Assembly (NCBI RefSeq): GCF_055900595.2
Contig: NZ_CM148325.1
Length of the DNA stretch: 64,000 nt
Reading direction: 5' to 3' (one strand)
Positions 57,228 through 57,665 of this stretch are shown here, piece after piece (the first letter of the stretch is position 1; each line of letters starts with the position of its first letter). The position numbers and the translations under genes are program-made. The notes under the pieces are model-generated. The model did no database searches, was not told where the DNA came from, and saw only the letters and a list, made by a program, of their open reading frames with translations.

Positions 57228-57665
57228 ATGGTAAACAACTTCATATTTCTCCATTGCCTCTCACGAAAGGAACTGGACACACTGATCGAGCACGAATTAC
57301 AACTGATGCTGGCTGAAGGCTTTGACAAGTCCCCTATTTCCGCCAAGGCCCTGCATATTCGGCTCAAGGCAAAAGGTATCGTTAACGGTGGTTTAAGTAC
57401 GCTGAGCAGCCTTGAGCGAAAACGCCTAATTGCTGCCTATGTTGATCAGCAACTTGGCCCGTTGAATCTACGCCCAAAAGAAAAACAGCAATACGTCAAC
57501 CGCAAAACCCGTCAGGCCTTGCTGGCCAGAAACCAGCAGTTGCAGGCGGAAGTCAGTGAACTGCAAGACCAACTGGCGCAGAATACCCTATCGTTGATAG
57601 AAATTGTCAAAGCGGTAAAAATCAATACGGTTATTCCGGTGGAAAGTCTGTTGCCAAACATGTAA
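57228..57665 (+). CDS. hypothetical protein (145 aa), possible DNA-binding/coiled-coil protein; start uncertain
   Basis: ORF with a C-terminal Gln/Leu-rich heptad region (NQQLQAEVSELQDQLAQN); no recognisable family; alternative start at 57306. Confidence 0.4.
   Translation: MVNNFIFLHCLSRKELDTLIEHELQLMLAEGFDKSPISAKALHIRLKAKGIVNGGLSTLSSLERKRLIAAYVDQQLGPLNLRPKEKQQYVNRKTRQALLARNQQLQAEVSELQDQLAQNTLSLIEIVKAVKINTVIPVESLLPNM

Follow-up and report, generated by a model that had tools for sequence, protein, structure and literature searches.

Downstream of hipA and beside dif: a probable pseudogene remnant of a GInt-type island's fourth gene

What is encoded at the point downstream of hipA where the conserved chromosome gives way to a variable islet? 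In the 64,000-nucleotide stretch of contig NZ_CM148325.1 (RefSeq assembly GCF_055900595.2) analyzed here, to which "the window" refers throughout, hipB (55509 to 55793, + strand) and hipA (55793 to 57115, + strand) are followed on the same strand, 112 bp past the hipA stop codon, by an open reading frame (ORF) of 145 amino acids (aa) at 57228 to 57665 (ATG start; product MVNNFIFLHCLSRKELDTL...ESLLPNM in the ORF listing of the window). An earlier note, made from the letters of the window, had recorded this ORF as unannotated, possibly intact and of no recognizable family. Comparison with intact relatives leads us to conclude, with a probability of roughly 0.88, that it is an inactivated, 5′-truncated and 3′-frameshifted remnant of the ginD-position gene, the fourth gene of the integration module, of an island of the GInt type (Genomic Island with three Integrases) integrated beside dif.

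Anatomy of a damaged gene

From approximately position 57267 onward, the product of the ORF is 94% identical to an intact 144-aa homologue, and over the region shared with the intact allele of strain NT1F34 only two residues differ (V19A and R113Q). One set of genomes matches the segment only from window position 57267, and strains FORC_031, NT1F34 and HCP5S3_I2 carry the intact 144-aa gene, annotated as "hypothetical protein". Alignment of the window with these relatives resolved the following features.

57228 to 57665, + strand: the ORF as reported, composed of a chance ATG and 13 non-native codons from the island left end, residues 4 to 135 of the ginD-position protein, and a frameshifted end (PNM, stop).
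57264 to 57270: deletion junction, at which codon 3-4 of the ginD-position gene is joined to the island left end (CACGAAA/GGAAC, with a 2-nt AA microhomology).
57267 to 57691, + strand: the true ginD-position pseudogene, from the start of homology to the native TAA (57689 to 57691), delimited by alignment with NT1F34 and FORC_031; the feature called by the Prokaryotic Genome Annotation Pipeline (PGAP) ends at the equivalent of 57691.
57653 to 57654, + strand: 1-nt deletion (GTTGGCC to GTTGCC, one G lost after 57653) that shifts the frame, located from alignments.

Three-way alignments of the window, an intact left end and an intact ginC/ginD junction placed a loss of approximately 5.3 kb at the deletion junction, comprising ginA, ginB, ginC and the native ATG of the fourth gene; BLAST of the window against E. 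coli HCP5S3_I2 returned two blocks that meet there (55001 to 57276 and 57267 to 58239). Intact copies begin ATG CGC GGC AAG (MRGK), with their start codon in a TGATG overlap with the stop of the preceding gene. In the window everything 5′ of AAG/GAA has been replaced, and both the ATG at 57228 and the first 13 codons of the ORF (MVNNFIFLHCLSR) derive from left-end DNA. At the other extremity, the frameshifted copy ends at 57665 (..LLPNM, stop) as opposed to the native TAA at 57689 to 57691 (..LLAKHVIRELHKSS, stop). In the family alignment, R2 and G3 are nearly invariant and a C-terminal H-[VIL]-I-R-E-L helix is conserved; both are gone from the window copy. No sequence resembling a Shine-Dalgarno site was visible in the 14 nt (TTAAATAGCCTACG) ahead of the ATG at 57228, and no promoter-like site was found upstream of that ATG on the + strand. 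The replaced native start, the loss of R2/G3 and of the C-terminal helix, and the lack of a promoter-like site or Shine-Dalgarno-like sequence identify the ORF as a pseudogene. The internal deletion would have come first, taking ginABC and the first three codons, with the 1-nt deletion following later and shifting the 3′ end. A parallel case was found in Acinetobacter pollinis (locus L041, 160 to 705), where a left end of approximately 70 nt is joined straight to a fourth gene that is itself frameshifted, ginABC having been lost; since this is an independent lineage with the same combination of ginABC loss and frameshift, it too points to decay. The ORF thus marks an island that has been immobilized through loss of its recombinase genes.

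Several properties attributed to the ORF by the earlier note hold. It exists as described and is beyond chance, its intact homologue having relatives in the databases, and its tail is indeed Gln/Leu-rich; in an AlphaFold model of the intact homologue (predicted local distance difference test score 85.5), residues 84 to 123, the tail, form a single long helix and residues 134 to 143 the C-terminal helix. Others need amendment. The ORF was said to be convergent, which is correct for the antitoxin fragment at 57807 to 58001 (− strand) and incorrect for hipB and hipA, which run in the same direction. Nor is it unannotated: in 17 complete E. coli genomes RefSeq carries a "hypothetical protein, frameshifted" pseudogene at the equivalent of window 57306 to 57691. 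Where the earlier note had named an ORF interrupted in close relatives as a refuting outcome, the reverse was found, the relatives being intact (144 aa) and the window copy broken, and the suggestion of a possibly intact gene falls with the truncation and the frameshift.

The intact operon and its relation to GInts

In FORC_031, NT1F34 and HCP5S3_I2, hipA is followed directly by a tight operon encoding an integrase of 466 aa, an integrase of 516 aa, a hypothetical protein of 788 aa and the 144-aa protein (A to D hereafter). Corresponding four-gene operons were found in Acinetobacter pittii (445/524/776/146 aa) and Aeromonas veronii (463/519/789/148 aa). The small gene is always last in the operon at the E. 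coli, A. pittii and A. veronii loci, and its product ranges from 139 to 148 aa; on short metagenome contigs with distant members, at least the large upstream gene is present, ending 1 to 6 nt before the small gene. Against the Pfam model Phage_integrase, protein B scored 40.8 bits (above the cut-off), A 22.6 bits (below it) and C left only a trace (E = 0.018); A and B also gave weak matches to Xer-family NCBIfam models. The TGATG overlap in intact islands indicates translational coupling of the small gene to the gene before it. Among 5,426 complete E. coli genomes, matches were found for the fourth gene in 216 (194 at a cover of 80% or more), for the ginABC region in 249 (112 at a cover of 80% or more) and for the window-type remnant, at 99 to 100% identity over at least 80% of the segment, in 17. 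Seven of the matches to the fourth gene and the ginABC region in this search lie on plasmids and not on chromosomes. In NT1F34 itself the hipA gene adjoining the intact island is rearranged (locus L004, 5122 to 6444), with a 239-bp internal inversion, and is annotated as three pseudogene pieces.

A search of a 5.8-billion-protein collection with the intact 144-aa protein returned 142 relatives at E ≤ 1e-3 (best E = 1.8e-78), from Pectobacterium, Dickeya, Serratia, Klebsiella, Erwinia, Proteus, Providencia, Aeromonas and Acinetobacter; all are labeled "hypothetical" and none has a Pfam domain. The family is small, a profile search of 1.84 billion cluster representatives having given only 103 matches. 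Neither the ORF nor its intact homologue had a significant family in Pfam, NCBIfam or PHROGs, and a sequence-profile search of the PDB gave nothing below E = 0.45; weak matches to Wtap, HALZ and DUF2935 were rejected as coiled-coil noise. The earlier statement that no family could be recognized therefore stands for Pfam, NCBIfam and PHROGs, and fails in that synteny defines a conserved family, the fourth gene of a GInt-type operon. In the predicted fold of the intact product, a small N-terminal domain made of helices is followed by a long coiled coil at the C terminus.

GInts are characterized by ginABCD, whose products are three presumed integrases plus one small protein, each of the four being needed for integration as well as excision (Bardaji et al. 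2017, PMC5385486; Idola et al. 2023, PMC10214605), and by cargo that begins to diverge at the ginD stop codon (PMC5385486). Their further traits are a tripartite structure, insertion at a specific site between short imperfect direct repeats of 10 to 17 nt, and excision as a circular intermediate. Bardaji et al. 2017 and Hochhauser et al. 2023 recognized GInts by homology of the recombinase genes to those of accepted GInts. GInt families are reported at less than 35% identity, and GinD is often left unannotated. The window retains of this operon only the damaged fourth gene, ginABC being deleted, and the complete operon stands at the same site in the intact relatives. The NT1F34 module was compared with that of an island at the ssb site of E. 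coli YY76-1, whose ginC and ginD are listed as GInt genes by Idola et al. 2023 (PMC10214605, supplementary file 10). Protein A matched the ssb-type GinA (E = 4e-13), B matched GinB (E = 2e-14, with the Cys-rich C-terminal region included) and C matched GinC (E = 2e-9), and in all-against-all BLAST each of the three had its positional counterpart as best match, so that the two modules are collinear. Collinearity between FORC_031 and NT1F34 extends to the end of the fourth gene and is lost within a few bases of its TAA, beyond which the cargo varies by strain (type I restriction-modification system, AAA ATPase, leucine-rich-repeat [LRR] and ankyrin proteins). Short imperfect direct repeats flank the NT1F34 island, and comparison with K-12 identifies its empty site. 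The islands thus share with GInts four co-oriented genes at one end, two tyrosine recombinases, a large third protein that is usually called hypothetical and a coiled-coil protein of approximately 140 aa, together with cargo starting at the fourth-gene stop, imperfect direct repeats, site-specific insertion with a clean empty site, defence cargo in E. coli, and A, B and C proteins significantly homologous to, and collinear with, those of an accepted E. coli GInt.

Several observations weigh against this assignment. No similarity of the fourth protein to the ssb-type GinD could be detected (BLASTP E = 0.13; hidden Markov model [HMM] E = 0.51), and hhalign comparison of the two family alignments gave a probability of 3.7% over just 21 coiled-coil residues. 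Given the low identity reported between GInt families and the frequent lack of a GinD annotation, this result is no surprise. The name "GinD" therefore rests on position, size and architecture and not on sequence, and "ginD-position protein" is the accurate label; judged by sequence comparison, the fourth protein would form a distinct small family. Among the entries listed in Idola et al. 2023 (PMC10214605), the ssb-site island of YY76-1/T16R is present and the hipA-side copy is absent, and the E. coli accessions of the hipA-side proteins are likewise absent among the entries listed in its supplement. This absence suggests that the clade lies at the limit of what PSI-BLAST reaches from Pseudomonas GinC and GinD. 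It also counts against a pseudogene that the 145-aa frame is still open and that 132 of its residues remain family-like, so that residual translation is possible. Further differences from described GInts are the immobility of the window copy, which lacks ginABC, and the target, which here is the XerD arm of dif; the targets in PMC5385486 and PMC10214605 are an ABC-transporter gene and ssb, and neither dif nor Xer is mentioned.

[quoted passage not shown] In SEs, however, the non-catalytic protein, Tfp, is encoded second, whereas here it is third. Membership in this class was rejected: against the 214-4 module, the best E values were 1.5 for A and 8.6 for B, C had no match, the fourth protein matched Srap of the E. 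coli SE only at an HMM E value of 0.21, which also counts among the observations against the assignment above, and the gene order is GInt-like. In place within the module, size and C-terminal coiled coil, GinD and Srap resemble the fourth protein, and they are at most putative homologues of it. TnpC of Tn554, to which GinD has low but significant identity (Bardaji et al. 2017, PMC5385486), can be likened to it by description only, as the small third protein of a transposon with two tyrosine recombinases that stimulates and orients site-specific insertion; Tn554 differs in having no GinC- or Tfp-like protein. By analogy with GinD, Srap and TnpC, the intact 144-aa protein would most likely be a non-catalytic accessory or architectural factor, working with the tyrosine recombinases A and B and the recombinase-like C on the island ends or circular form and on the target.

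The best-surviving alternative is that the ORF is still a working gene, whose truncated product from the ATG at 57228 keeps the N-terminal domain and the coiled coil and acts as a regulator, alone or in trans with another GInt. All 145 codons are open with just the two substitutions noted above, the allele is kept at 99 to 100% identity in 17 genomes, and other GInts, such as that at the ssb site, can occur in E. coli. Those 17 genomes are, however, near-identical over the whole segment, which argues for recent common descent and not selection, and the ssb-type GInt has an unrelated fourth protein. The native start, the translational coupling, R2/G3 and the C-terminal helix have all been lost, there is no recognizable ribosome-binding site or promoter, and in A. 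pollinis loss of ginABC was likewise, and independently, followed by a frameshift in this gene. We consider a functional gene unlikely, and favor the pseudogene of a GInt-type module.

dif as boundary and probable landing site

Two features lie between hipA and the pseudogene.

57192 to 57219, + strand: dif (GGTGCGCATAATGTATATTATGTTAAAT), with XerC arm GGTGCGCATAA, center TGTATA and XerD arm TTATGTTAAAT; its last base is the boundary between core and islet.
57220 to 57266, + strand: the remaining 47 bp of the left end of island no. 1, with the AACTTCATA motif at +18 to +26.

The dif sequence is the experimentally confirmed E. coli dif (PMC3025954) and is matched exactly (28/28) once in the window, with 0 matches expected by chance. 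The site follows hipA at a distance of 77 bp, and the base directly after it opens the variable islet (57219/57220). In a megablast of window 57100 to 57800 against the complete E. coli genomes, 4,874 of 5,426 matched, almost all over query positions 1 to 120, that is to 57219, in agreement with the earlier placement of the ORF at the boundary of core and islet. Calling it the first islet gene was right as to position, the ORF starting 9 bp after core homology ends, and wrong as to its being a gene. K-12 matches the window over 55001 to 57219 and then only over 63888 to 63999, homology resuming near 63888 at 79 to 83% identity. The 47 bp of left end are nearly identical to the DNA preceding ginA in E. 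coli HCP5S3_I2 and E. whittamii and similar to that in Aeromonas.

The intact NT1F34 island (locus L004, 6549 to 21285) is followed directly by K-12 sequence at 100% identity, so K-12 represents a clean empty site. Its right end (...ACAACATAAGTTAAAT, followed by CATGTCTG) agrees with the XerD arm at 9 of 11 positions, as an imperfect direct repeat with GTTAAAT in common; the repeats are thus TTATGTTAAAT on the left and ATAAGTTAAAT on the right, and the same right repeat is present in the window at 60656 to 60666. A scan of one genome per species gave 29 loci (in Escherichia, Enterobacter, Pectobacterium, Citrobacter, Klebsiella, Xenorhabdus, Psychrobacter and many Acinetobacter). Sites of the dif type were counted in these and in the A. 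pittii and A. veronii loci described above, with the three E. coli reference loci excluded, and 22 loci had enough upstream sequence. In 20 of the 22, a dif-type site (NNTNCG[CT]ATAA-TGTATA-TTATGTTAAA[TA]) abuts the island left end in the same orientation. Eighteen of these sites lie 5.0 to 5.5 kb upstream of the small gene and the others at 1.5 kb (an internally deleted copy) and 6.7 kb. In one of the 20, that of the second copy of a tandem pair in Acinetobacter sp. NIPH 2699 (L036), the central region is a hybrid. With up to 1 mismatch allowed, the 17-mer TGTATATTATGTTAAAT occurs nowhere else in those loci. Two blocks are conserved among left ends, A[AT]NA[CG]TTCA[TC] (+18 to +26) and AATCA (near +47), and the right ends of the E. 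coli, E. whittamii and Acinetobacter islands finish with [AC]A[ACT]ATAAGTTAAAT. Right ends in Acinetobacter (A. pollinis, L041; A. pittii, L030 11965 to 11992) have the look of a pseudo-dif, TGTCG[CT]ATAAC-TT[CA]AT-TTTATGTTAAAT, with an XerC-arm-like TCG[CT]ATAA that is absent from E. coli right ends. Filamentous-phage replication genes were seen just upstream of the dif-type site in A. pittii (L009, 1035 to 2575; Phage_CRI/G2P) and A. veronii (L011, 1 to 2063; Rep_trans and CTX RstB), so that a prophage dependent on Xer and a GInt-type island occupy a single dif locus there.

[quoted passage not shown] The islands share with IMEXs residence at dif, tandem arrays there and a common neighborhood, which raises the question of whether they belong to this type, integrating at dif through host XerC/XerD, with the small protein as a Xer-directed accessory comparable to XafT of TLC-phi. 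The exact abutment on dif in one orientation at 20 of 22 loci, the CTX-like prophage genes just upstream in Acinetobacter and Aeromonas, and the Acinetobacter right ends that resemble a pseudo-dif with an XerC-arm-like TCGCATAA would all be expected of such elements, and the phage genes also fit a chromosomal dif neighborhood in which IMEX phages reside as well. The islands, however, carry three recombinase-family genes, two of whose products, B above the Pfam cut-off and A just below it, are tyrosine-recombinase-family proteins with weak Xer-family NCBIfam matches. The E. coli right ends consist of an XerD-arm-like 11-mer only and lack an XerC arm, and a search of the E. coli loci for a further dif-like site, with up to 8 mismatches in 28 allowed, found none. 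From the positions of its mismatches, the segment that the right-end repeat shares is GTTAAAT, which lies at the XerD arm's outer edge and outside the central region of dif where XerCD exchange strands. The self-encoded recombinases and the lack of a second dif-like site argue against a Xer-dependent mechanism, and we regard an IMEX as a very improbable explanation. That the ORF is a chance open frame or, as the earlier note had also suggested, a remnant of the displaced K-12 yneL region can be dismissed, given its strong homology to a conserved family (best E 1.8e-78, 103 cluster representatives of 1.84 billion) and the finding that K-12 DNA beyond dif, to ydeT, has no similarity to window 57220 to 63887.

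For the GInt-type island, the target would be the outer GTTAAAT, or TTATGTTAAAT, of the dif XerD arm, with the crossover probably within GTTAAAT. After integration, the left side would still have an intact dif and the right end a degenerate copy, ATAAGTTAAAT, and the predicted circle junction would join the right end (...ACATAAGTTAAAT) to the left end. The islands may be independent of XerCD. In the sequences compared, which represent three gammaproteobacterial orders, this clade of GInts is consistently located at the XerD edge of dif. We offer more tentatively, and at somewhat less than even odds, the proposal that the module of this clade, found in Enterobacterales, Aeromonas and Moraxellaceae and equipped with its own fourth-gene accessory family, uses the outer XerD-arm edge as its attachment (att) site independently of Xer, leaves dif intact and builds tandem arrays, which would explain a known hotspot of variation at this locus (hotspot #20, below). 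The clade would then also be a further, self-sufficient kind of mobile element among those that take dif as a landmark.

No description of this clade as such was found, and in the literature library searched no paper ties GInts, cassettes of three integrases or RIT elements to dif or Xer, an absence from that library that does not prove novelty. Other mobile elements that use dif as a landmark are the insertion sequences of the IS1202 family (ISAjo2 group), which target dif or pdif 5 bp from the XerC arm (PMC10132070). Those are insertion sequences on the opposite side of dif, whereas the elements here are tyrosine-recombinase islands. In E. coli EC42405 (L005, 4930 to 7889), the interval from hipA to dif, which is the XerC side, contains a SIR2-family gene and a transposase annotated as ISNCY, an arrangement that recalls IS1202 elements.

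Two probable decayed islands in the hipA-ydeT hotspot

The remainder of the islet contains the following features.

57807 to 58001, − strand: antitoxin fragment, a 64-aa Xre/MbcA/ParS C-terminal toxin-binding domain (Pfam PF09722, E = 1e-10; relatives annotated as MbcA/ParS/Xre antitoxin); cargo of island no. 1.
58059 to 58307, − strand: fragment of an Xre-type helix-turn-helix (HTH) gene (Pfam HTH_19/HTH_3), homologous to a 110-aa HTH gene of loci L002, L004 and L006; cargo of island no. 1.
58951 to 60477, − strand: 508-aa LRR protein (Pfam LRR_4, E = 5e-16); cargo of island no. 1.
60651 to 60666, + strand: right-end repeat, CAACATAAGTTAAAT, which terminates island no. 1 and imperfectly copies the XerD arm of dif; the same terminus is found in NT1F34 and E. 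whittamii and a related one in Acinetobacter.
60667 to 60721, + strand: left end of island no. 2, opening CATATTGACTGTTAACTTACTTCATGAACC (compare locus L017), with the ACTTCATGA motif at +18 to +26 and an HTH-gene fragment within approximately 55 bp.
61170 to 63143, + strand: 657-aa ankyrin-repeat protein; cargo of island no. 2.

Island no. 1 spans 57220 to 60666 and comprises the left end, the ginABC deletion, the damaged fourth gene, the antitoxin and HTH fragments and the LRR protein. In intact islands, the HTH gene likewise comes next after the ginD-position gene, on the opposite strand. A search of 57001 to 64000 for the junction pattern (TAAA[TA], 14 to 24 nt, [ACG]TTCA[TC]) returned only 57215, at dif and the left end, and 60662. 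Following the second left end, 60722 to 60899 is an HTH-gene fragment with 96.6% identity to NT1F34; because it comes straight after the left end, ginABCD must have been deleted there too. The islet therefore probably consists of two decayed islands in tandem, the second lacking all four gin genes. The right end of island no. 2 was sought in the window and not found; fragments of an IS481 element and of a hydrolase gene follow, and DNA resembling K-12 begins at approximately 63888. Three fragments of one Xre-type HTH gene (MSEKNPIPERLKEARCRAGLSQRSLG...) lie on the − strand, at 58059 to 58307, at 60688 to 60867 and at approximately 63150 to 63290 (the third approximate, from the RefSeq annotation of relatives), a recurrence that fits repeated accretion and decay of islands. 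Tandem copies were also found in Acinetobacter (L028 and L036 on one contig; L041; L042).

The LRR gene is 1383, 1527 or 1569 nt long in strains that are otherwise near-identical, which suggests that repeat number varies among them. Its product has an N-terminal stretch rich in SKN/SKT, and a long antisense ORF (59152 to 59772, + strand) is a by-product of the repeats. Together, the ankyrin and LRR proteins are an unusual cargo for E. coli and effector-like in appearance.

The interval between hipA and ydeT is hotspot #20 of Hochhauser et al. 2023 (PMC10121019, supplementary tables), occupied in 62 of 783 genomes. Its islands in E. coli H3 and S43 are labeled "GInt" with CBASS as cargo, which independently supports the assignment made above, and that in E. 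coli 1303 has no recognizable mobile element and carries AVAST II (PMC10121019). With dif at 57192 to 57219 directly next to the islet, hotspot #20 corresponds to the XerD flank of dif. The variability of the hipA-ydeT interval would then have a mechanistic reason, namely that it is the XerD side of dif and is targeted by one clade of islands. Such islands are often immobilized by loss of their recombinase genes, as seen in the independent ginABC deletions of the window lineage, of the second island in the window and of A. pollinis, and ginABC loss leaves "orphan" cargo with no obvious mobility genes. The ORF itself is ordinary, and the fitting annotation for it is that of a fourth-gene pseudogene left by a GInt and not that of a new protein; the intact fourth-gene proteins constitute a small, previously unrecognized family (103 cluster representatives) that could receive a family model. 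If islands of this clade do target the edge of dif with recombinases of their own, dif would be a near-universal, single-copy and essential landing pad for a class of elements distinct from IMEXs, which would raise the question of whether the islands interfere with the action of XerCD and FtsK.

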